Positions 14,593-47,169 of a DNA stretch of 64,000 nucleotides are shown here, piece after piece. The notes under the pieces were generated by a model that saw nothing but the letters and a program-made list of their open reading frames with translations, was not told the DNA's origin and ran no database searches. This DNA comes from a virus (Duplodnaviria; Caudoviricetes). How positions within the stretch are numbered: the stretch's first letter is position 1; every line of letters starts with the position of its first letter. The stretch lies in IMG/VR virus record IMGVR_UViG_3300025011_000016; one strand, 5' to 3'. A program made the translations under genes and the position numbers.

Positions 14593-15916
14593 ATGACTAT
14601 ACTACAAAAAGATTACAGTAGTAATTATTCAATAAAAGAATTAGCTATAAATGACATAGCTCCTAAATATTTTGATATGGTTGATATTAATCAATTAAAT
14701 ATTGGAATGTTTGGTTATAGTACAGAAATGATATCCAATACGACTGAAGATACATTTAATGCAGTTTCAATATTCTTGAAAGAAATGTTTCCTAATAAAG
14801 CTATATTACCAGAATCAATTTATAATTATGCATCATTATTTCAATTAGATAATTTATTTGCAACGCCTGCAAGTACGTATATGATGTTATTTATCAATGA
14901 GAAAGATATAGTTAATTTGGGGATAAATAAAGGTTCTTTCTATGAGTTTATATTAGATTCCGATCTAGTAATAGACATTGAAGATAAACGATTTATGTTG
15001 GATTATAATATAGTTATAACAGCCAAACCATATAAGACAGATTATATTTTTACAGCTCAATATAAATTAGATTTTACAAATTCATTGAGTGATGAAAATG
15101 GTCCGTATATATTAAAAGCTAAAAGAATAAATTATACTGGGAATAAATATTTAGGTTTATTTGTTAAGGTTAGACAATTAAGTAAAACATCTATAAGTGA
15201 ACAAGTATTCACTAATGATAAAATTAACTTTCCTACATTCTCACTTAATTTTGTAGATCAATTAGCAAATTTTGAAATATATTATAAGTCACCAGATTCA
15301 TCTGATTTTATTCAACTGAAAAAAAGAGTTGTCAATACACCGGCTATAGATACTCCATTCTGTTATTATACCGTTAAAAATCAAAATGAAATTGTTATCA
15401 GTTTCTCAACACTCAGTAAATACTTTCAACCAAAATTTAATTCGGAATTTAAAATAGACCTGTATACAACGACTGGAAGTGCTGGTAATTTTCCTGCATA
15501 TACAGGTACTGAAGTAAATGTTATTCCTAAATCTGAAATATATACGTATAATAATGGTATTGTCATATTTGCTATACCACAGTCTGATAGTGTAGGTGGG
15601 TCTGATTATTTAGACATTGAAGAATTAAGATCGATTGTAGTTGAAAAATTCTCTACTGTTGATTCATATACTAATGAGAATGATTTACAAGTATATTTCA
15701 CTAATTTTAAATATAGATATGGTAATGAGATATTATTTATAAAAAAAAGAGATGACGCATTTGAAAGATTATTTTCATCATTTGCGTTACTGAAAGATGA
15801 GAATAATGATATTTATCACACTAACACATTACATGCAATTATTATACCAAGTGAATTCGATACCATATATATTCAAAATAAGTTACTAGTTTTAAAACCA
15901 GGACATCTTTTTAGAT
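14593..15916 (+). CDS. Baseplate wedge protein (T4 gp6-like), exon 1
   Basis: Spliced to 17575..18917 it reads KPGHLFR-Y-KVDTNAVEL in frame (1324+1343 nt = 888 aa plus stop). The 5' splice site U15916 pairs with G15927 in P1 (AGAU/GUCU). Confidence 0.75.
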
Positions 15917-16216
15917 TCTAATATGAGTCTCGTTGCATAGTAATATGCAATTGCAACTACTTTAATTGCGGGAAACTCCTTATAGCTTAAACTGATATAA
16001 ATATAAACAAAGTTTAAGATTGGACAATCTGCAGCCAAAGATCTATTTATAGATTTAGGTTCAACGACTAGAACGTAAAGTTCGTAGGGCTCAAGTGAGT
16101 GGGTGAGAATCCCTTAAATCGAAATGGGTAGCCCCAGTATAACAACGTTATAATGGGTGAAGATATAGTCTGTGCTTTAAGGAAACTTAGAGAAATAACT
16201 TAACCGTAAGTCTTAC

Positions 16217-17530
16217 TAATTCATTCCTAATAAAATATTATTATGGGTATAACAAATAATATAAGAAAGGAGGTGAATAAAAAAAATGATTAAGACTTTT
16301 AAAACAAGAATACGACCGACTAAAGAACAAGAAGTATATTTAAATAAATGCTTTGGATATAGACGATTTATATATAATAATACCTTAGAGTATTTTAATA
16401 AGATCCTAGAATTCAATGGTAATATTATTGATAAGGATTTAAAGAAGTTCTTCGATAAATTTGATTTTATTACTCATATATATTCTAAGAAAGAAAAAGA
16501 ACCGGGATTTGAATGGACTAAAGAATATAATAAAACTGTAAAGAATGAAGTGGCTAGTGATTTTAATATAACTGTCAACAAGTTCTTTAAAGATATTAAA
16601 AATAAGAAACGGTGTAAACTTCATTTTAAAAGAAAGATCCATGGTAATGGATCATTCCGAATATACAATAAGAATAAAGGTAACGTTAAAATTATTGACA
16701 AAAACAAATTCTCTTTTATTATTAATAGAGAATATGGTCATATGTCATTGAAAACTTTTGAAGATATAAGTTTCTTATATCAATATGAAATAAAAACAAT
16801 GACTATTAGTATGAAGAATTTTAAATATTATGTATCATTTACATATGAGTTAGATGTCCCAAAGCATACTCATACGAAAAACATAGTGGGTGTAGATCTA
16901 GGAATACTTAATCCGGTAGTTTGTTTTGATGGAAAAGATATCATAAATCCTAAATTCCCAAAGGGAATTATTAAGAAACTAGAGAAGAAAACCGATAAAC
17001 TTTCAACGATAGTTTCTAAAAAGAAGTATGATAAGTACGATCCATCGAAAAACTATATAAAAGCGAGAACCAAGCTTAATGATATTTATATTAAAATAGT
17101 GAATATCAGAATGGATTATATTCAGAAGGTTTCAACCTTCTTAGCTAAGACTTATAGAAACGTAGTAGTCGATGAGTTTAGTTTTAAAGAATTACTTACA
17201 GAATCTGATGGTATTAAGCGTATTAATAGGGGTATTCATAGAGTTGGTGCCTTTACGTTTACACAAGTGTTAAAATATAAATGCTACTTTTACGGTAGCG
17301 AATATATTTTAGCGTTACCTAATACTACTAACACATGCTCTGAATGTAACCATAAACTTAAAACTAAGTTAAAGTTATCTCAAAGAATCTTTAATTGTCC
17401 AATATGCGGGCATATAGATGACAGAGATAATAATGCGGCTATTAATATTTATAAGTCGTTTAAAGGATCTTTATTAACTAACGTAAATAAAGATTTCGCC
17501 GTTGGTCGGACGGTTTAAAGAACCTTAAAC
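16217..17530 (+). mobile_element. IS200/IS605-family tnpB-only element inserted 3' of TTAC inside the intron
   Basis: Deleting 16217-17530 regenerates a perfect 17-bp inverted repeat, AATAACTTAACCGTAAG-T-CTTACGGTTAAGTTATT. No tnpA is present and there is no target duplication. Ends are ambiguous by ~2 nt. Confidence 0.7.
16286..17518 (+). CDS. tnpB: TnpB RNA-guided endonuclease
   Basis: N-terminal HTH (FKTRIRPTKEQ...FIYN), RuvC-I VGVDLG, RuvC-II variant VVVDEF, Zn ribbon CSEC/CPIC, RuvC-III DRDNNAAINI. Confidence 0.9.
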   Translation: MIKTFKTRIRPTKEQEVYLNKCFGYRRFIYNNTLEYFNKILEFNGNIIDKDLKKFFDKFDFITHIYSKKEKEPGFEWTKEYNKTVKNEVASDFNITVNKFFKDIKNKKRCKLHFKRKIHGNGSFRIYNKNKGNVKIIDKNKFSFIINREYGHMSLKTFEDISFLYQYEIKTMTISMKNFKYYVSFTYELDVPKHTHTKNIVGVDLGILNPVVCFDGKDIINPKFPKGIIKKLEKKTDKLSTIVSKKKYDKYDPSKNYIKARTKLNDIYIKIVNIRMDYIQKVSTFLAKTYRNVVVDEFSFKELLTESDGIKRINRGIHRVGAFTFTQVLKYKCYFYGSEYILALPNTTNTCSECNHKLKTKLKLSQRIFNCPICGHIDDRDNNAAINIYKSFKGSLLTNVNKDFAVGRTV

Positions 17531-17574
17531 GGTTAAGTTATTGTGGTATCTAACGAATACTACTAACACGACAG

Positions 17575-18917
17575 ATAAGGTAGATACCAATGCCGTTGAG
17601 TTAATTCCTATCCTGACTATTAAGGATGATATTGGTGTATTAACTGATGACTATATATTCACAAATTTATTTCTAGTTACAGTTAGTAAATCTCCAGGGA
17701 TTATTGGTTACTATATTAATTCAATTGATGATAAATTGTCTCTAGATTACGAGTATGTGAATTCAGATTCCATAGTACAATTCATATGTAATAACATCAA
17801 TATATATAGGAATGCAATTGCAGGTGAGGATGTATACAAGATTACAGTCGCATTAACTCCAACCTTAGATGACGGTGAAGTAATGGCAACTAAAGTTGCC
17901 AATATTATTACAGACTTAGGAATATTAAAGATAAAAATAATGGTGGAAGATAATGGAGTGGAGATTTGCTATTTAGATACAATAATGACAGATTTCGATG
18001 AATTAACGAATATATATACATTTGAAGCAACTTTGAGTACTACTGATTACATGACTTTCGACCAATATATGCAAGTTATGAATATTAATAATACTATCGA
18101 TGGGATTATTTTAGTCAATACTTTAATACCTATGTATAATTGTAAATTAAATGTTTATGCTTTCTATAAGTATAGTGAACTTGACGAAGAGGGAAATCTA
18201 TATAAAATACCCCATATATATGATCATATTGCTGAATTACAACCTTATACTTTAACAAATAAATATTCAACAGTAGATAAAAAAGTTAATTTCATAAGTC
18301 CTCTTAATATCTTAAGAAGTATGGTAAACTTCACATCCGCTAATAATGTTGATGGGTATGATGTTACCATCAGTGCAGTTCCATTTGTATCAGCACCTAT
18401 GATGAAAGATCCAATTAAGTATAATTCTTTTATGAAAACTATATTGATTCAGTATGAATATATGCAAAATGCATTATCTAAAGTCACTAATAATTATGGT
18501 ATAGATATGAAATTTTATAATACTTATGGGAGATCAAATAATTTTATTGCAGGTGATCTAGGGGTTCAACTAGATAATGTCAATACTAGAATATATATTA
18601 GAGTTAAACCTAGCGTTGGTTCAGATGTCGATGATTTAATTCTATCATTAAAAGTATTCATCAAGAAATTTATTGAAAGTATAAATGCTTTAGGTTCAAA
18701 TGGGATTTATATATCCAATTTAATTACTAGTGTAGAAACAAATTTTTCCACCGTTGAATATATGAGGTTTGGTAATCTTAATGATTACGATTCTTCGGTT
18801 CAAATAATAGAGAACCGAACTCCCGATATAACATCATTGTCTAAGATTGATAGACAAAATTATGTGCCTGAATATCTAACAATTAGTTTAGACGATATTA
18901 TTATTGATCTATTGTAG
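17575..18917 (+). CDS. Baseplate wedge protein, exon 2
   Basis: In-frame continuation after omega-G 17574. C-terminal part resembles gp6-like wedge proteins (MKFYNTYG...IK.FIESIN...LYISNL). Confidence 0.75.
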
Positions 18918-38870: not shown

Positions 38871-38904
38871 AATAATAGACTAGCTTAATTGCTAGTCTAT
38901 TATT
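38871..38904. terminator. Bidirectional terminator
   Basis: AATAATAGACTAGC / GCTAGTCTATTATT between convergent genes. Confidence 0.8.
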
Positions 38905-38915
38905 TTTTTTAAAGT

Positions 38916-39300
38916 TTATCCACCATGATGAATATCGTCATAAACATCACCTGGAATTGTCAATATTTCATCAGGCATAATATCAGTAACAGCTATTAAA
39001 TCATCACCGACTAATTGACAATTTGGATTTTGATCATATTGAATATGCAAACCTAAATAATTTACCCAATGATTTACATATAAGGGACTTACTATTTCAC
39101 CAGAATTTATTTTTTTACTAGTATAGAATGTCATTTTCCCATCTTCATCCCATTTACTATATATTGAATTCGGAAGTGATTCTACACCAACACCTTCTTT
39201 GATAGGTTCCCATGGTTTATTAGTATAAATTTCTTGCAATTTTCTTTTTAATTCAATTAAGACTTTATTGCCAAACATGGTTAATAGAATACTAGGAGTC
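38916..39300 (-). CDS. RNA polymerase beta-like subunit, exon 7 (with SET-like tail)
   Basis: AT|G ACT CCT AGT junction gives ARMTPSILLTMFGNK; 385 nt. Confidence 0.8.
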
Positions 39301-39577
39301 CAATAATGTTAATAATATTCGTTAAATATTATAAAGGATAAAATCCTTTCTCTATCTTTCAATAGAAGTTCAGACTATTTCATCATCTCATTAGAGATGC
39401 TTCTTATTTTGATTCACACTTGTAAATCTAAGAACTCTACCGTTCTAGTCGTTGAACCTTATTCTTTTGTAAGAATATTGGCTGCGGATTGTCCAATCTA
39501 TATTAGTAAAGCCCTAAGAAGTTTCCCGCAATTAAAGAAGTTTGCATTATATATCACTATACAATGGGACGAATTCC
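39301..39577 (-). ncRNA. Group I intron 6 of the RNAP gene (277 nt, ORF-less)
   Basis: P1 GGAU/GUCC with the U.G splice pair; core motifs AATTGCGGGAAAC, AATCCGCAGC, GTTCAACGACTA, ATAGTC; omega-G 39301. Confidence 0.85.
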
Positions 39578-39711
39578 ATCCTCGCTAAAATTGAGCCCGG
39601 TGCTATGGTGGAACTTATTTCTTCATTAGGCCGAGATAAGGCGTATGGTTCAAAACCTTCCTCGACCACCTCCCCTATGATAGACTTGAGAGCGGTGAAA
39701 TAGACAATCTT
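39578..39711 (-). CDS. RNA polymerase beta-like subunit, exon 6 (134 nt; not in the ORF track)
   Basis: KIVYFTALKSIIGEVV...PGSILAR completes the GDK motif begun in exon 5. Confidence 0.8.
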
Positions 39712-40931
39712 CTTTATATTCATACATGTCCATAAGCATGTATAAGTTCACATATGGAACTTCCCTAAGTTTCCTTAGGATACTAGACTATATCTTCATC
39801 TCTTAATAAGGTAATTACTTCTTAGATAGAGATGCTTCTTATTTCGATTTAAGGGGATTTCACCCACCCATTTAGGCCCTACTCCTATTGTGTATTTCAA
39901 CACTAAAGGATAGTCGTTGAACGATATGTTGTAAGACATTCTTTATATATACCTTTATATAATTTACCCTGGTTTAATTTTTTTAACATATTTTTTAATT
40001 TTTTTGAATCATAATCAAATTTAGGTAATATATCTTTTATACGTATACCTTGAATCAACATATTACTCATCTCAATAATATCTTCTTTACTATAAGTTTT
40101 ATAATATATTTTATCATTATCCCATACATACAAATCACTTATAGCTCTCCAACTTTTTCTATGTTTAATTTCAGATAACATAGATAATATATTCGGTCTA
40201 TCTTCCCAATGAAATATATTAATTATTTTTGTTAAACTATATCCCAATACAAAGTATTTACATATTTGATGTACTTCATCGTTTGTAAAGAATGCTTTAA
40301 AGTGTCTGTCACAATTCTCATAAAGGTTATTCTTAGCGGCGTGTGCCTTATTTTCATTAGCAGTCACCCATTCTAAATTATCAACCCTATTATTTAATTT
40401 ATTACCATCTATATGATTAGCCTCTAACTCTTCTATAATATTATTGGGTAATGGATTAAAATGGATCAATACCAAACGTTGAACTGAAAATTTTTTGTAC
40501 TTCTTATTATCTACCTCTAAAGCAACACGACAATATCCTTTTTCATTACCGGGGTTATTAAATCCTAATATTTTATTTCGTTCAATGTTCTTTACCCTAC
40601 CATGATCACTAATCATATACTTAGGTTTGATATTTTTATACACTATATCTTTCCATTGCTCATGGTCAGTTACAATATTTATAAATAATTTCATAGAAAC
40701 ACCTCTTTAATTTTTATATTAGATATACGTTTAGCCATATATTATTAGTTATTTTTCTTACAACACATTCGCTGCGGATCATCCAATCTTTATCATTATT
40801 ACTTATACTAGGTTAATTACTCCCAGTCATTAATATAAAATTAATTAGTAGATAGAGCAATAAGGATATCCCCGCAATTAAAGAAGTTTTTTACTAATAT
40901 ATCACTATACTAGGGAGACAAACTGTATGTA
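39712..40931 (-). ncRNA. Group I intron 5 with an HNH homing endonuclease in P6a
   Basis: Perfect P1 GGAGAU/GUCUCC; core motifs present; P6a arms at 40756-40768 and 39924-39936 enclose the HEG; omega-G 39712. Confidence 0.85.
39903..40694 (-). CDS. NUMOD4-HNH homing endonuclease (I-HmuI-like)
   Basis: EQWKDI...YMISDHGRV (NUMOD4); NHIDGNKLNNRVDNLEWVTANEN (HNH); RBS GAGGTG. Confidence 0.9.
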   Translation of the reverse strand: MKLFINIVTDHEQWKDIVYKNIKPKYMISDHGRVKNIERNKILGFNNPGNEKGYCRVALEVDNKKYKKFSVQRLVLIHFNPLPNNIIEELEANHIDGNKLNNRVDNLEWVTANENKAHAAKNNLYENCDRHFKAFFTNDEVHQICKYFVLGYSLTKIINIFHWEDRPNILSMLSEIKHRKSWRAISDLYVWDNDKIYYKTYSKEDIIEMSNMLIQGIRIKDILPKFDYDSKKLKNMLKKLNQGKLYKGIYKECLTTYRSTTIL

Positions 40932-41657
40932 ATCTCCAATCCCGAGCACGTCATTATACTTAATATAAAATTCAAATAAAACTCCTTGGTCCACTACAGT
41001 ACCTTTAACTTTACCATCCTTAGATTCGATTTTTTTAGTGGGTTCGTTCATCATAATGCCACATTTATATATAGAATCCCCTTTATCATATTTATTGAGA
41101 ACATTTTTCTTCTTATTTATTCTAGTATAATAATCAGATACAATTTTTCTCAATGAGGGACTTAACTCTTCTAGTTCAACCGTAGTGTAGATCTTGATAT
41201 CTACAATCTCACCAGAATACTTAGTTTTAATAGGCGTTTTCCCTAATGATTTAATATCTTCTCGTAATTCCTTACCAATAGAATCTAAAAATTTATTTAA
41301 TGAGTTGTCATCAAAAGAAACTTCGAACCGGATAAGTTCATCTGAAACTTGAACTTTCTGCCCTATCTCAACCATATAGTCAACATTCGCATTTAAACCT
41401 AGAGCAACAGTTTTTTCCATAACAATGTCTGCCGCCATTTCTCTACCCAATTTCTTTGTTATAAAAGCAGAATCTTCAAAGGTAGAATATGTTGATAAAC
41501 ATGCAACTTTTTGTAATGATCCAATATTAAATCTATTACCAGTTATTTTACTATCAGTAAAGAATTTACTATCCGATGCAAGTATATCTTTTTGTTTAAA
41601 TTTTTGACCTTTAACTAGATTACATGTTAATTTATTTGATAGATAGAAACCCCCAGC
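40932..41657 (-). CDS. RNA polymerase beta-like subunit, exon 5
   Basis: AGGFYLSNKL...EDSAFIT...LGIGD; 726 nt; double-psi barrel region of beta. Confidence 0.85.
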
Positions 41658-41838
41658 CATTATATTCATATAGATTATAAACCTATACAGTTCTCAAATG
41701 AACTTCCCTAATGTTAATTAGGATACTAGACTATATCTTCATCTTATAAAGATGATCCCTATTTCGATATATAAATATATCTACGAGTTCTCACTCTAGT
41801 CGTTGAACCTGTCTTATAGTAATATAGAAGATTATAAG

Positions 41839-41848
41839 TATATATTAT
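41839..41848 (+). promoter_or_regulatory. Early-type promoter motif TATATATTAT inside intron 4, antisense to the RNAP gene
   Basis: Exact match to the motif found upstream of other non-structural genes. Confidence 0.55.
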
Positions 41849-41886
41849 ATTAATAGATAATAAAATAAAGGAGCCAAATAATTACT

Positions 41887-41949
41887 ATGTTCCACGTTAT
41901 TATATTCTTTATGTTGCTTCGTATTCTCAGTCGTTTAGGTAAAAAATAA
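41887..41949 (+). CDS. 20-aa hydrophobic peptide MFHVIIFFMLLRILSRLGKK (not in the ORF track)
   Basis: RBS AAAGGAG upstream; first ORF after the early motif. Confidence 0.4.
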   Translation: MFHVIIFFMLLRILSRLGKK

Positions 41950-41966
41950 TTAGGGAGTGTTTTACT

Positions 41967-42332
41967 ATGATTACACCAAAGGATATTTTAATGAACTTAA
42001 TTCAAACTGCACAAGACGATGAATTATTTCAAGAAAATGCCATTGAGTTAACCAACAGATTTTTCTATAATCGATTTCTTAGTGTCTTAAAACAATATAA
42101 CGGTGATGAGGCTAAGGCATATGACGCCTTCATCGTAAAAAAGAATCTATATCTCTTCAATTTATATATTGAGGAGTTCATTGATTTACAGCGTTCCACT
42201 TATCAATCTATGTATCCATCACAATGGACTGAGAATCCATATAATATGGTTTTACGTAAAGAACTCAGACAGATTCATCATTATCTATGTGCCGACCCAA
42301 GAATACTTGACATGCCATCATATCACGGATAA
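41967..42332 (+). CDS. Hypothetical 121-aa protein antisense within intron 4
   Basis: RBS AGGGAG, ATG start, normal composition, own terminator at ~42348-42377; no HNH, GIY-YIG or LAGLIDADG motif. Confidence 0.7.
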   Translation: MITPKDILMNLIQTAQDDELFQENAIELTNRFFYNRFLSVLKQYNGDEAKAYDAFIVKKNLYLFNLYIEEFIDLQRSTYQSMYPSQWTENPYNMVLRKELRQIHHYLCADPRILDMPSYHG

Positions 42333-42347
42333 TCTATTAATACTATA

Positions 42348-42377
42348 TGGGTGATTTTATATCACCTCTCTTTTTTT
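42348..42377 (+). terminator. Intrinsic terminator of the antisense cassette
   Basis: GGTGAT-tttat-ATCACC followed by TCTCTTTTTTT. Confidence 0.6.
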
Positions 42378-42492
42378 ACTATAAGACTTGGCTGCGGATT
42401 GTCCAATCTTTATTATATAAAGCTCTAAGGAGTTTCCCGACAATTAAAGGATATTCTTTATACATTCACACATATAAAGGGCATTTTAGTTT

Positions 42493-42724
42493 ACCATTTT
42501 TAACTACTTTAGTTGAAGTATCAATAGCTTGTATAGAATTGTCTTTATATCTAATAATAGTTAAACCATTAGCATCATTAACTTCTTCTACAATACCATC
42601 TTGTTTCGCCACAATAACGAAGTCATTTGATAAATGATATTGAATAACTTGTTCCGCACCATTAGATATTAAAACAGGTGATGATTTTACAATAGGTATG
42701 ATATGCTTCGATTGTTTACTGGCC
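42493..42724 (-). CDS. RNA polymerase beta-like subunit, exon 4
   Basis: (M)ASKQSKHIIP...TKVVKNG; 232 nt; corresponds to beta MQRQAVP region. Confidence 0.8.
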
Positions 42725-43012
42725 CTTTCATGCACATGAGTTATTAGCACATGCAGTTCTCTTACGAACTTCCCTAACTTTCATTAGGATAATAGACTAT
42801 ATCTTCGTCCTTTATTTTTTTTATATAAAGGAGTTTCTTATTTCGATACATAAAGTATCTACGAGTTCACACTCTAGTCGTTGAACCTTCCTCTTATAAA
42901 GAGACTTGGCTGCGGATTGTCCAATCTTTATCTTATAAAGCTCTAAGGAGTTTCCCGTCAATTAAAGAAATGACTTTAAATATATTACTATACTTATGCG
43001 ACAGTATTATTC
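42725..43012 (-). ncRNA. Group I intron 3 (288 nt, ORF-less)
   Basis: P1 GCGAU/GUCGC; core motifs present; omega-G 42725. Confidence 0.85.
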
Positions 43013-43032
43013 ATCGCAGTTCTTGTACTATC
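43013..43032 (-). CDS. RNA polymerase beta-like subunit, 20-nt micro-exon 3 (DSTRTA-M)
   Basis: GAT AGT ACA AGA ACT GCG AT, bounded by omega-G 43033 (7-bp P10) and the P1 of intron 3. Restores RDDSTRTAMASKQ, like beta HDDANRALMGANMQ. Confidence 0.8.
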
Positions 43033-43807
43033 CGTAACCATTCATGTTTCCATAAATGACAGACTATATCTTCATCTACATAGTTACATGTTTAGATGTC
43101 CTCCATTTCGGCTTATAAATAAACCTACGAGTTTACACTCTAGTCGTTGAACCTTTCTCTATAAAAAATAGTAATATCATACTCTGAATTTATATATCAT
43201 ATACTTGAATATAATAAAATAATGGAGTTGAATTGATATGATATGATAATAAATGATATCCATAATATAACAGACTTCGATCAGTATATAGAATTCTATA
43301 CTCAATTAACTAATACATATGGTAAACTAAATCATTATATCTCCAAAATATTTGAAAGGCGTGGAAATATCAGTATTGACCATCTACCAATTAAATCACA
43401 TAAACTTAAACTCGGTACTCTTTTATATCATGTATCCGAAACTAAATATGATTTTTTAAAATCATCATTTAAAAGTAGAGATGAATTTTTATACTCTGAA
43501 AATAGAATATATTTTACTACAGACATCGAATCATTAGAGCCACATTTTAAAAAGTATCGATATGTCTATATGTATGTAGTTACAGGTAATGAAAATACAT
43601 TTATCGACTATGAGTATAATAATAACAAATCATTCTATATATCTAATGATAAACCATTTGAAATTAAAGAGGTTCAACTTCTTTAATTTTTTTATAGAGA
43701 CTTGGCTGCGGATTGCCCAATCTTTATATTATAAAGCTCTAAGGGGTTCCCCGACAATTAAAAGGATTCTTATTATGTATTTCTACATAAAGGGACAATA
43801 GTAATTT
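43033..43807 (-). ncRNA. Group I intron 2 (775 nt) with an antisense ART-like gene in P6a
   Basis: P1 GGGAU/GUCCC; P10 of 7 bp; P9.0 GU/AC; P6a arms at 43157-43168 and 43688-43699. Confidence 0.85.
43243..43686 (+). CDS. ADP-ribosyltransferase-fold (Arr-like) protein, antisense within intron 2
   Basis: LLYHVS...NRIYFTT...YVYMYVVTG...FID...SFYISNDKPFEI parallels Arr FYHGT...NHIYFT...VYIVEPTG...D...SYRS..P. RBS TGGAG; early-like motif TATATATCAT at 43191-43200. Confidence 0.55.
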   Translation: MIINDIHNITDFDQYIEFYTQLTNTYGKLNHYISKIFERRGNISIDHLPIKSHKLKLGTLLYHVSETKYDFLKSSFKSRDEFLYSENRIYFTTDIESLEPHFKKYRYVYMYVVTGNENTFIDYEYNNNKSFYISNDKPFEIKEVQLL

Positions 43808-44091
43808 ATCCCGTGTTACACCCAATGGTGATAATAATTCAGCAGGAGAAAATAAATTTGAATCTTTTAATTTATCCAATTGATCATTCTTTATGTCAAT
43901 ATAACCCCTCGGACTAACTATATTAGGTTCTAATGTTAACTGTCTAACGATACCACAGTTTGCGTCGGGTGACGTTGATATTGCTATAATACCTAACATA
44001 GTTTCATCATACGCTCTCTTATCTTGGGTATAAGCGTTATCTTCGTTCATCCCACTAAATCCCTTTTGGGATATCACACGACCTTTTTCCA
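43808..44091 (-). CDS. RNA polymerase beta-like subunit, exon 2
   Basis: T|TG GAA AAA gives NPIVELEKGR...SPDANCGIVRQLT...GVTRD; 284 nt. Confidence 0.85.
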
Positions 44092-44374
44092 CAAATAGTT
44101 AACATTATTTGTTAGATAATGTAAAGATGTTATCTTTCTCTATTTTTCAATAGATGTTCAGACTATATCATCATCTCCATTGAGATGCTTCCCGTTTCAG
44201 TTTAAGGAATTAACTTCCACTCACTTGAGCCCTATAAGTTAGTCGTTGAACCTTATTCTATCATATAGAATATTGGATGCAGATTGTCCAATCTTTATAT
44301 TATAAAGCACTAAGGGGTTTCCTGCAATTAAAGAAGTTTGCATTATATATCACTACATAATGGAACTACGAAAA
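44092..44374 (-). ncRNA. Group I intron 1 (283 nt, ORF-less)
   Basis: P1 GAAU/GUUC; core motifs present; omega-G 44092. Confidence 0.85.
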
Positions 44375-47024
44375 ATTCAACTATGGGATTTAGTGTAGAA
44401 TAATCTTCAATCGTCTGACCCATTAATAATTCTTTAGTTACGTAATCCCTGGGAAGTGAAATACGGACTGGATTATTGTTGTTAGCAGTTGCTTTATACC
44501 TACTATACTGCTGAGCAATACCTTGATATAAAATTGCACTTACTACCTCATTGGAACGAATCCTATAAAGACTCATATCCTTTTCATTAATATATGAATT
44601 ATCAGATAATAAAGCATTGGCAAATAACATTAAACTTACAAAATCTGTAGGATAATTTAAGTCTTCTAGAACTTCTTTGGTGATTGGATCTATTAAAAAC
44701 TCATAAAAGTTATCAAAAGCGTTACCGATTATCTTAGTATTAAACATGGTATCAAATATTGTTAGATACGTTTCCTTATCATCAAAATCTGTATATTCGA
44801 ATGCTTTAGTAGGTACATCGACAAAGGCATTCATTAATAAAGAATTCTCAAAGGGATTCACATCATATACAAGATACCCATCTGAAAATTGAATTGAATT
44901 TTCATTATCAGCAAGTTTTGGTCGTTTATCAACAAATTGATGTTTGATATTGGCTTTCTTCAGCACTGAGGTTAAACCCTCTACATACCCTAATAATAAT
45001 ACTAATGGTACATTTTTTTTCATAATATACGCTCTTGTGTAAGAAAACTTTTTGCCAGCTTTAGTATCTTCAAATTCTTTGAATGCTTCACCTGAAGATA
45101 CTGACATTATAAAATCAACAATATCGAAATTACCCATACGTTGAGTACTATAGTTCATAATGATAGGACTACGAGGATTTATGAAAAATCCAATACAGAA
45201 CTCATCTTCTTTAAGTTTAGTTTTATATTTAACTAATAAATCATGAACTTCGTTTTGATCAAAATAGAACTCACAATTTGATATTTTAATATATGAGATA
45301 TATTTCGATAATTCATCATATTCCAATAGAGATTTGTACTTAGAGTTATTATTGGCATTATTACCATATTTGATAATTACACCAGATCTGGGTATAGATA
45401 TGACTTTCTTAAATCTTTCTATTTTGGATGAAACTTTGTTGCCATATCTCATAATAAAGATTTTTTTATAGTTACTACAAACCTGAACCTTATCGGGCCC
45501 AATCTTTATTACAGGTTTAGAGAACAATTGCTTATTGATAATCTTCTTATTACCATTTAGATATAAGAATTTATCATCAATAAACTTAGGCATATCAAAC
45601 TTTAATTTATGTCGGACTCTATTTGAATCTTCAAGTTCAACCGAAAAAGTCTCTCTGTAATTTAATTCATCAGAGCTATCTTCAACGTCTATCTTTCTAA
45701 CAAATACAGGAAGGCCCTTATCATTTAAACATGTTAATGTATTGGCAACATCAGCATGATACAGATTTTCATTATACGACTTTTCAAAGAAAGGATATTT
45801 AATTCCAGTCATATTTTTGTTAATAGTATTAACATTACTCGTCACATCAATTGACGGAATAAAAGATTCTTTTAATTTAATATTTCTGGCTTCATCTAAA
45901 GTCATTTTACCCAACATAATATTCTTTTGATTTTCTCTTAACTCAATATCTCTTTTTAATGACTGAGGAGTTCTACCAACTTTCTTTTCCTGATTAAGTG
46001 TATAGATTTCCTTTAATAACTTCTCGTCATTAACTAATACATTCTCCAATTTATCTTTTAATTCCTTTGTAGTTTGGGTTTTGGCTTCAGGTGAATTAAC
46101 TAACTCATCTATTCTAGAAGTAATAGCTTCCTGAAATTCTTCATCGTTATCTCCTTCAGAAACTTCTTCATCTTCATCTTGAGGATCATCTGGATGATTC
46201 CCAGTAAAACCGAATGTATATAAGAATTTACCCAGAAGATCATCTCTAATTTCTTGAACTTCAATTTGTCTATCTAGGTCTTTATCGTTATCGGTAATAT
46301 TCATATCAGGTGCAATCTTAATTAATTCTCTTCTTAATACCGTATAAGATTTATCATCACATAATGATGGATTGACTCGTATCATAGTATTTCCACCATA
46401 AATTAATATATTGATATCTCCAAGTTCTTGAAACTTCTTAAAGAACTTATGCATAGCATAATAGATAATAAATACAGGATTATTTAATACCATCTTTTGT
46501 TTCATTGACGCTCTAACATTCTTTACCCAACTATCGGCATCGATACATATAGTTTTAAGATTATACTCATCATATTTAGAATCCACCAATATAGACTTTA
46601 TTAAATCCATATAAGCTAATATCTTAACATTAAATTTTATCTTTACTCCATATTTAAAAAAGATCTCATTATATTTAGATAAATCCACATAAACATTCTT
46701 ACCATCAATACTATCTAACTGAGTCGGTGTATTAATAAATGATAATTTAGAATTTACTTCAGAATAGATTAACTGTCTCTCCTTATTAACTAATGATCTA
46801 TATGTTTTATTGAATAATTTACCTTTATATGATTGATCGATAAAATAATAATGGAATTTATTGTTATGATATATTAGAGGATTATTAATAAGGTTAATAG
46901 ATGATTGTAAAGTATTGTTATTGATAAGAACTAGGCTGTGTAATGTGGGTGTTTTGGGATTTACATCTAAAACCGTTTTCTGTTTATATAATTTTAGATG
47001 CGGTGTACTAGAAACACTATTCAA
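44375..47024 (-). CDS. Multisubunit RNA polymerase beta-like subunit, exon 1 (probably virion RNAP, phiKZ gp178-like; spliced length 1476 aa)
   Basis: Exon lengths 2650+284+20+232+726+134+385 = 4431 nt, one open frame with beta motifs. Late promoter and size suggest the virion enzyme. Confidence 0.8.
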
Positions 47025-47058
47025 ATTATATCACTCCTATCCCTAGATTTAATACTCT

Positions 47059-47070
47059 TATGTGATTGTT
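47059..47070 (-). promoter_or_regulatory. Late promoter AACA-N6-TA of the RNAP gene
   Basis: AACA-ATCACA-TA ~35 nt upstream of TTG 47024. Confidence 0.65.
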
Positions 47071-47169
47071 GATAAATCGTAAAATAATGATTGTAGAGTA
47101 GAAAGTAATAATGTTTACAACTATATATTATATACTAGTAAAGAAATAAAAATTAGGAGGAATTTATTA

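Follow-up and report, generated by a model that had tools for sequence, protein, structure and literature searches.

How does a gene for a TnpB nuclease come to lie inside a group I intron of a large phage, and what has spread with it: the gene, a transposon around it, or the intron as a whole? This question is posed by positions 15917-17574 (plus strand) of a 64,000-nucleotide stretch of phage DNA (IMG/VR record IMGVR_UViG_3300025011_000016; hereafter the window, whose numbering is used unless another record is named), where a virion-module gene of a large phage of groundwater origin (~272 kb) is split by a 1,658-base intron. Judged from the sequence comparisons described below, what has spread is the intron as a whole, and it is thus an IStron: a known kind of element in a host group without a printed description of it, and not a transposon freshly nested in an intron. 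Its assignment to the tnpB-only IS200/IS605 IStrons similar to those of group A, together with a putative role of its TnpB in RNA-guided intron homing or retention, is in our judgment probable.

The two halves of the interrupted gene lie at 14593-15916 (exon 1) and 17575-18917 (exon 2), both on the plus strand. By tblastn, exon 1 matches the N-terminal half and exon 2 the C-terminal half of a gene that is undivided in AR9, PBS1, phiR1-37, and related jumbo phages, and both match a single protein family, PHROG 18960, exon 1 (which also stands in the list of open reading frames, ORFs) at profile positions 11-436 and exon 2 at positions 480-878. Joining 15916 to 17575 yields a stop-free product of 888 amino acids (aa) that is colinear with AR9 g212 (904 aa) and phiR1-37 g207, with an indel-free junction whose codon, T|AT, encodes a Tyr that is the same residue in both the AR9 and phiR1-37 proteins. 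The 888-aa ORF expected after splicing in the first-pass annotation of this DNA is confirmed by this stop-free join and colinearity. The same annotation had spoken of a jumbo-phage baseplate gene. The jumbo phage stands, given the AR9-like gene content and the occurrence of window proteins on a 272,509-nt contig, whereas the baseplate is not established: the neighbours of the gene are virion genes, and PHROG 18960 itself has no functional assignment. No relative of the host gene or of the window TnpB was found in IMG/VR, and no close DNA relative of the window in INPHARED.

The 5' part of the intron is a group I ribozyme core (P1-P9, 15907-16192, plus strand) that is IA2-like, has a P7.1/P7.2 insertion, and aligns with the full Rfam model RF00028 (positions 1-253; 78.8 bits, E 7e-20). 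This full-length match confirms the complete core reported earlier, and self-splicing is predicted from it. P9 (16175-16192) is capped by a GAAA loop. P1 (15913-15930, plus strand), as drawn from the Rfam alignment, pairs AGAU|UC (15913-15918) with GAGUCU (15925-15930), with a U.G wobble at 15916. Covariation supports this helix: among the four full copies of the element introduced below, exon position -4 changes together with the final base of the internal guide sequence (IGS; the 3' strand of P1), the pair being A:U twice and U:A twice. The P1 loop, UAAUAU, may form P10 with AUA of exon 2, over 3 bp only. The features of a group I intron are thus present, namely the conserved core, the U.G at the 5' splice site in P1, the terminal G, and a gene that is restored by exon ligation. 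An Rfam scan of the full 64 kb at the gathering threshold overlooked this 78.8-bit intron, probably because of its speed filters, and a scan of a 1.9-kb region recovered it; ORF-bearing introns are easy to overlook in whole-window Rfam scans.

The limits of the mobile unit can be read from its other copies. A protein search returned four clusters of TnpBs that are 85-98% identical, all from groundwater metagenomes. The 272,509-nt contig alone carries five TnpB paralogs, one of which, P0071, is identical to the window protein (cluster look-up); the copies per genome thus number at least five, and two of them were located on one scaffold. The other paralog loci are an NAD-ligase gene (L003), a gene for the terminase large subunit (TerL; L006, where PHROG support for this identity is weak for that exon and strong for the upstream exon), a RecD-like helicase gene (L009/L017), and an intergenic site (L015). 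In the four full copies homology starts exactly at the 5' splice site, GAT|TC, and in every copy, five of five, it stops exactly at the 3' splice site, ...CACGACAG|. Mean pairwise identity among the paralogs is ~0.35 outside the element and 0.67-0.97 inside it, with a step up to ~0.8-0.97 at 15917 and a step down at 17574, and excision at the element ends restores open frames in the ligase, TerL, and helicase genes as well as in the window gene. The 5' flanks of the four full copies read TAGAT, TAGAT, ATGAT, and TTGAT, and no target duplication is seen; in the window, the TAGAT comprises the last five nucleotides of exon 1 (15912-15916, plus strand), a candidate target motif or target-adjacent motif (TAM) whose last four nucleotides pair in P1. 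Furthermore, several Logan contigs continue from the element into differing flanks, the point of exit being exactly 17574, and in three runs the tnpB 5' region has ~6-7x the depth of the unique flanks, a value that is not equal to copy number and was used as qualitative support only. Since the four full copies share exact splice-site ends, the mobile unit is the whole intron (15917-17574, plus strand; 1,658 nt). The earlier view, which denied the element the status of a canonical IStron on account of the 44 nt of intron left after it, had to be abandoned: four independent full copies run from the 5' splice site to the omega-G, with nothing beyond.

The intergenic copy (L015, 3400-4790) has lost P1-P8 and gives no Rfam match, yet it runs to the same 3' end. 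It lies on the scaffold of the window copy, ~36 kb upstream of the latter, directly after a terminator-like hairpin. Its homology begins at window position 16163/16165, directly following an internal AAGAT in the 3' strand of P7, and the new flank ends in GTTAT. These ends may reflect cleavage by an IS605-type transposase at a pseudo-left-end, although chance is possible at roughly 1 in 20. Repeated IStrons also break or mis-join metagenome assemblies: L013, L014, and L021-L023 are among the contigs that end inside the element, and L010, a 3,952-nt ENA contig whose 5' half is the helicase-gene copy and whose 3' half is the window copy including exon 2, was left out of the site count as an assembly chimera. 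The ligase, TerL, and helicase genes are absent from the window, so that no empty sites are readable there. A Logan joint 16267>17467, considered as an ORF-less derivative, turned out on closer look to be a more divergent tnpB copy. A pattern search of JGI metagenomes for an ORF-less form gave 0 matches, and a search with an invariant 22-mer found only one short contig, an L015-type copy.

The tnpB gene (16286-17518, plus strand) encodes a protein of 410 aa in which all three Pfam domains (HTH_OrfB_IS605, OrfB_IS605, and Cas12f1-like TNB) exceed the cut-off, and in which the RuvC triad (D204/E297/D381) and the CxxC...CxxC zinc finger are present, in agreement with the earlier description of an intact gene. 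Its best natural relative in the PDB is ISDra2 TnpB (E 4e-23), and it is ~27-35% identical at most to any described relative. Among the five paralogs, the ratio of nonsynonymous to synonymous substitution (dN/dS) is 0.11-0.23 at a synonymous divergence (dS) of 0.4-0.6; by this measure, purifying selection maintains TnpB in every paralog, with the catalytic residues intact. Neither tnpA nor a remnant of it was found in the element. As stated before, tnpA is missing, and there would be no room for it, only 69 nt lying between the repeat arm and the tnpB start; tnpB is the sole credible ORF, the others of at least 50 aa in the ORF list being two minus-strand frames of 66-67 aa inside the element. 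Many published IStrons are likewise devoid of tnpA, so that its loss is no bar to membership (PMC4227781).

The gene is enclosed by a 14-bp inverted repeat (P9.1, the "IR stem"), whose 5' arm (16194-16207, plus strand) is the perfect complement of its 3' arm (17529-17542, plus strand), and which is kept in the paralogs with one U.G wobble or one bulge. The proposal that tnpB lies between the two P9.1 strands is borne out in that the ORF occupies the loop of this long-range stem. An inverted repeat enclosing the ORFs and followed by the 3' terminus has been described for all IStrons, with the insertion sequence (IS) part downstream of P9.x (PMC4227781). The 3' domain after the repeat, 44 nt in length, consists of the P9.2 hairpin and a tail and ends in the omega-G. 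P9.2 (17543-17563, plus strand; GTGGTAT, loop CTAACGA, ATACTAC) has a G:C pair replaced by A:U in L003, a compensatory change, and one wobble turned into a pair, and the same hairpin recurs in ORF-less sister introns. The tail, TAACACGACAG (17564-17574, plus strand), is invariant in all five paralogs, with unique flank starting directly after it; the omega-G assigned to 17574 at first pass thus holds as the element end in all copies. Just upstream of this domain, a local 5-bp hairpin, CUUAA-ACGG-UUAAG (17521-17538), can sequester part of the 3' repeat arm and could toggle the RNA between its intron and guide-RNA folds. Positions 17521-17530 loosely repeat the 5' arm and resemble the direct repeat beside the 3' inverted repeat of group B IStrons. 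An exact 14-nt direct repeat, AATACTACTAACAC, found at 17321-17334 (in tnpB) and 17556-17569 (intron tail), is not conserved in the paralogs and probably due to chance.

How TnpB might act is suggested by the 3' end of the element. A hyper-conserved block of 108 nt (17467-17574, plus strand) shows 0.94-0.97 identity versus ~0.85 in the ORF (dS ~0.5), even at synonymous positions near the end of tnpB. Its fold is more stable than that of shuffled controls (z = -3.3), and it has the motif TCGCC..GGTC..CGG in common with the 3' untranslated region (UTR) of a related element in the Staphylococcus phage Machias, described further below. This block is a candidate omegaRNA scaffold that overlaps the intron 3' domain. 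In published IStrons, the scaffold is the intron 3' end and the guide is the 3' exon, splicing and guide formation being mutually exclusive (PMC10690162; also PMC13521648, PMC13565253); the omegaRNA reaches ~15 nt past the intron, and homing of the intron is implied by IStrons that have tnpB only (PMC13565253). TTGAT is the target and TAM of group A IStrons and ISDra2 (PMC4227781, PMC10690162), and specifically the TAM of the IS605-type CdiIStron (PMC10690162). By analogy with the published IStron/IS605 architecture (PMC10690162, PMC13565253), the candidate guide in the window would be the first ~16 nt of exon 2 (17575-17590, plus strand). The first-pass annotation had offered two mechanisms, and the one in which the TAM is ~TAGAT, the guide is taken from the beginning of exon 2, and alleles lacking the intron are cut appears the likeliest: both the comparisons and the published work on IStrons favour it most, although as a mechanism it is inferred and not demonstrated.

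Under this mechanism, the intron would splice out of the mRNA, so that the insertion would cost the phage little. A fraction of the transcripts would become omegaRNA, with 17467-17574 as scaffold and ~16 nt of exon 2 as guide. The TnpB-omegaRNA complex would cut intron-less alleles, in which TAGAT is followed by ATAAGGTAGATACC... (in full, TAGAT + ATAAGGTAGATACCAA), either in relatives that co-infect the cell or where the element has been lost, and recombinational repair would then copy the IStron into the cut allele, which amounts to RNA-guided intron homing and retention. New genes might be reached by TnpA in trans, by reverse splicing, or by some other route.

Several observations weigh against this reading. 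An intron-less host-gene allele was not found in the sampled population, where every large contig with the neighbouring gene has the split allele, and a current target is therefore putative. The GAT| flank is equally required by P1 and is found in ORF-less sister introns, and may reflect pairing in P1 instead of a TAM. Likewise, tnpB-less sisters possess the P9.2 hairpin and tail as native parts, and an intron origin fits them as well as an IS right end does. The 3' terminus is ACAG (GACAG) in all tnpB copies, as opposed to the TCAG of group A. The published omegaRNA pseudoknot was looked for by eye, and a candidate, in which a GUCG loop could pair with CGAC of the tail, is unsupported by Machias. 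The ends proposed here for the omegaRNA are drawn by analogy, and splicing at 15916|17575 is predicted from colinearity and the literature; a look for the sequence in RNA runs found none that contains it.

The sister introns mentioned above occur in the window at 39350-39603 and 44138-44384 (minus strand) and also beside the ligase copy (L003, 7201-). They have a 5-6-bp P9.1 hairpin, then the P9.2 hairpin with a CTAACGA or very similar loop, and a tail TAACAC(T)CAG, one of them ending in TCAG. More broadly, the minus strand of 38900-47100 holds one or more genes broken by many group I introns, with eight RF00028 matches, of which three (39350-39603, 42772-43022, and 44138-44384) exceed the gathering threshold and five are weaker; these ORF-less introns are ~70% identical to the IStron ribozyme core. 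The sequence depth over P7'-P9, ~24x that of the flank, suggests some two dozen related introns per genome. On the evolutionary scale, the placement of tnpB inside P9.1 therefore stands, as ORF-less sisters have a short P9.1 there and the 44-nt tail is family-wide; the ends of a nested IS do not. Two histories fit: either a tnpB module entered the intron, or the ORF-less introns are gutted IStrons, ORF loss that leaves the repeat stem only being documented for BcISt1 (PMC4227781).

The other mechanism put forward at first pass treats 16217-17530 as a separate IS200/IS605-type element in the P9.1 loop after TTAC, whose omegaRNA would end at 17530, with GGTTAAGTTATTGTGG as guide, and whose TnpB would home into tnpB-less copies of the intron. 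TTAC is the target of IS608, and the sequence does read ...TTAC|...|GGTT. The ORF-less sisters, with their short P9.1 hairpin at the same position and the same P9.2 hairpin and tail downstream, also speak for a past entry of a tnpB module into the P9.1 loop, which is probable. However, no copy has the ends 16217/17530, and all five paralogs, including the intergenic ribozyme-less one, reach 17574. TTAC is present in two of the five (TTAC, CTAA, TTAC, TTAA, TTAA) and in ~3 of 7 contig variants, position 16216 being A in 4 of ~7 variants among the Logan contigs, and conservation within the element is lowest over the proposed left end (16217-16249). The perfect 17-bp repeat said to be regenerated by removal of 16217-17530 is real, but 14 of these base pairs already form in the intact sequence, and the deletion adds only AAG/CTT about a 1-nt loop; the argument for a precise insertion thus rests on ~3 bp, not 17. 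The junction pattern of an empty P9.1 hairpin gave 0 matches in IMG/VR, and the 16216>17531 joint was not seen in the Logan contigs of four metagenome runs. Moreover, TTAC+GGTTAAGTTATT equals the left arm of the element itself read on the opposite strand, and by this palindrome symmetry each copy would carry the TAM and a 12-nt seed match on its own minus strand, a self-targeting hazard. TnpB would furthermore be without a visible target, yet it is under purifying selection. With the motif altered in three of five paralogs and neither a copy nor an empty site having those ends, insertion right after TTAC is not upheld, and the homing scheme built upon it, burdened in addition by self-targeting, is the explanation to which we give the least credence.

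A different possibility, unlikely in our view, is that intron mechanisms alone (reverse splicing via the GAGUC IGS, or homing endonucleases in trans) have spread these elements, with TnpB as a passenger whose nuclease would not drive the homing of this element and which may have other targets or modulate splicing through binding at the 3' splice-site region. The swarm of related ORF-less introns, which also follow GAT| and stand out by their P7'-P9 depth, would be expected in this case; P1 complementarity suffices to explain the shared flank, and TnpB binding represses splicing in one studied IStron (PMC10690162). A mere passenger is difficult to reconcile with the strong purifying selection on all five TnpB paralogs and their intact catalytic residues, with the overlap of the hyper-conserved 3' block and synonymous sites, and with the characterised IStrons and IS605 elements, in which TnpB cuts the empty site (PMC10690162, PMC10055086). 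The insertion is also present in all assemblies of this phage and the paralogs are old (dS 0.4-0.6), as would befit a fixed, immobile relic in which TnpB persists owing to activity until recently or to a function for which the phage has co-opted it. Over such divergence, however, an unselected ORF would have decayed, and the low dN/dS together with the conserved 3' block points to continued function, which renders a relic highly improbable.

An IStron with RNA-guided homing, the reading preferred here, has its closest counterparts in group A, whose members insert after TTGAT, ATTAT, or TTTAT, often without ORF A, and in which tnpB-only copies spread (PMC4227781). In common with CdISt1 and the CdiIStrons of C. 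difficile (PMC4227781, PMC10690162), the window element has a 5' IA2-type ribozyme, a tnpB in an inverted-repeat stem-loop downstream of P9, ends that coincide with the splice sites, a TTGAT-like pentanucleotide, and a normal U.G in P1; both are multi-copy, many copies are without tnpA, and the TnpB is ISDra2-like. Group A differs in its host, a Firmicute or Fusobacterium chromosome instead of a large AR9-like phage, and in its 3' end (TCAG versus ACAG here). In addition, no tnpA remnant is found here, the repeat stem is 14 bp and AU-rich as compared with 6-10 bp in group A, and the 3' hairpin and tail, unlike those of group A, are common to the phage's own ORF-less introns. The CboIStron and other IS607-type elements of group B, which include those of the C. 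botulinum phages c-st and D-1873, share the long AU-rich repeat stem around the ORF and the presence in phage genomes. They are the only experimentally dissected IStrons, with the scaffold in the intron 3' end, the guide in the 3' exon, and competition between splicing and guide formation. They differ in belonging to the serine-recombinase family, in a GG-ending target (TGGG TAM), in a G instead of a U at the 5' splice site, and in a CGG 3' end. ISDra2 TnpB-omegaRNA, the best natural solved relative, has TTGAT as TAM and target and takes its guide from the right-flank DNA, but it is a bacterial chromosomal IS without a ribozyme and with tnpA. Finally, introns of the T4 td/I-TevI type are likewise IA2 introns of essential phage genes that carry their ORF in a peripheral loop, and in mixed infections the encoded nuclease should cut the alleles that are free of the intron. 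In contrast, the nuclease considered here would be RNA-guided, and its specificity would shift automatically with the flanking exon and not by protein evolution.

A second jumbo-phage element of the same architecture was found outside the groundwater metagenomes. By tblastn, 360 phage records contain relatives of TnpB, and several copies are present in S. aureus jumbo phages. In one of these, Machias (MW349128), a compact group I core (43.7 bits and E 4e-10 for a short stretch, below the gathering score) lies upstream of gp224, the annotated "transposase", and this tnpB lies in a 13-bp inverted repeat of unrelated sequence that is followed by a hairpin and a tail, ...AACAAGACAG|. The element, of 1,653 nt versus 1,658 nt here, follows ...GGAT|, and its removal joins an unannotated first exon of 24 codons to gyrB (VRHRSD|MYVG). 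Its TnpB is 31% identical to that of the window, its 3' UTR is of a longer type (~200 nt, with the scaffold outside the ORF), and its ribozyme core is reduced. In the Machias record (2158-2229 and 3883-), the first 24 gyrB codons (MTSTYSGSNIKHLEGLEAVRHRSD) are unannotated and the deposited coding sequence begins 12 codons into exon 2, a misplacement that arose because the IStron was read as a free-standing transposase gene. The published description of the S. aureus jumbo phages, including Machias, mentions introns but neither a transposase nor TnpB, and no publication on IStrons of jumbo phages came up in the literature searches.

IStrons have been known from Firmicutes, Fusobacteria, and two prophage-like phages of C. 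botulinum (IS607 type); here, an IS605-type, tnpB-only family occupies several essential genes of a large AR9-like phage, and at least one jumbo phage in culture, Machias of S. aureus, harbours a homologous element that has escaped annotation. Intron homing has its classical setting in phage co-infection, and these elements therefore offer a natural system for testing the published idea that TnpB replaces a protein homing endonuclease. For annotation, the consequence is that "transposase" genes beside split jumbo-phage genes can hide missing exons, such as exon 1 of the Machias gyrB. As a tentative extension, which is possible but less likely than the assignment of the element itself, the IStron TnpBs of AR9-like jumbo phages may be RNA-guided intron-homing nucleases in phage-phage competition. 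Each genome would hold 5-7 differently guided copies, each directed against an intron-less essential-gene allele of co-infecting relatives, and the ~24 ORF-less sisters would be decayed IStrons that spread, or still spread, by this means.

Two smaller features of the tnpB locus may be added. The 5' side of the gene carries a block that is kept in all copies in the paralog alignments (16250-16285, plus strand) and includes the ribosome-binding site AAGGAGGTG and possibly an internal promoter; in its upstream part, TAACAAATAATATAAGAAAGGAGGTG (16250-16275), two copies have 1-2 substitutions in the ribosome-binding site, and the block motif is not over-represented in the window. An AR9 late promoter was considered for tnpB, but AACA is one base off the AACA-N6-T-A/G spacing (PMC5449584) and the block is not enriched, so that no promoter is claimed. 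In the helicase copy (L009/L017), a 1-nt deletion shortens TnpB to 396 aa, with a loss of ~14 C-terminal residues, and leaves the downstream RNA block unaffected.

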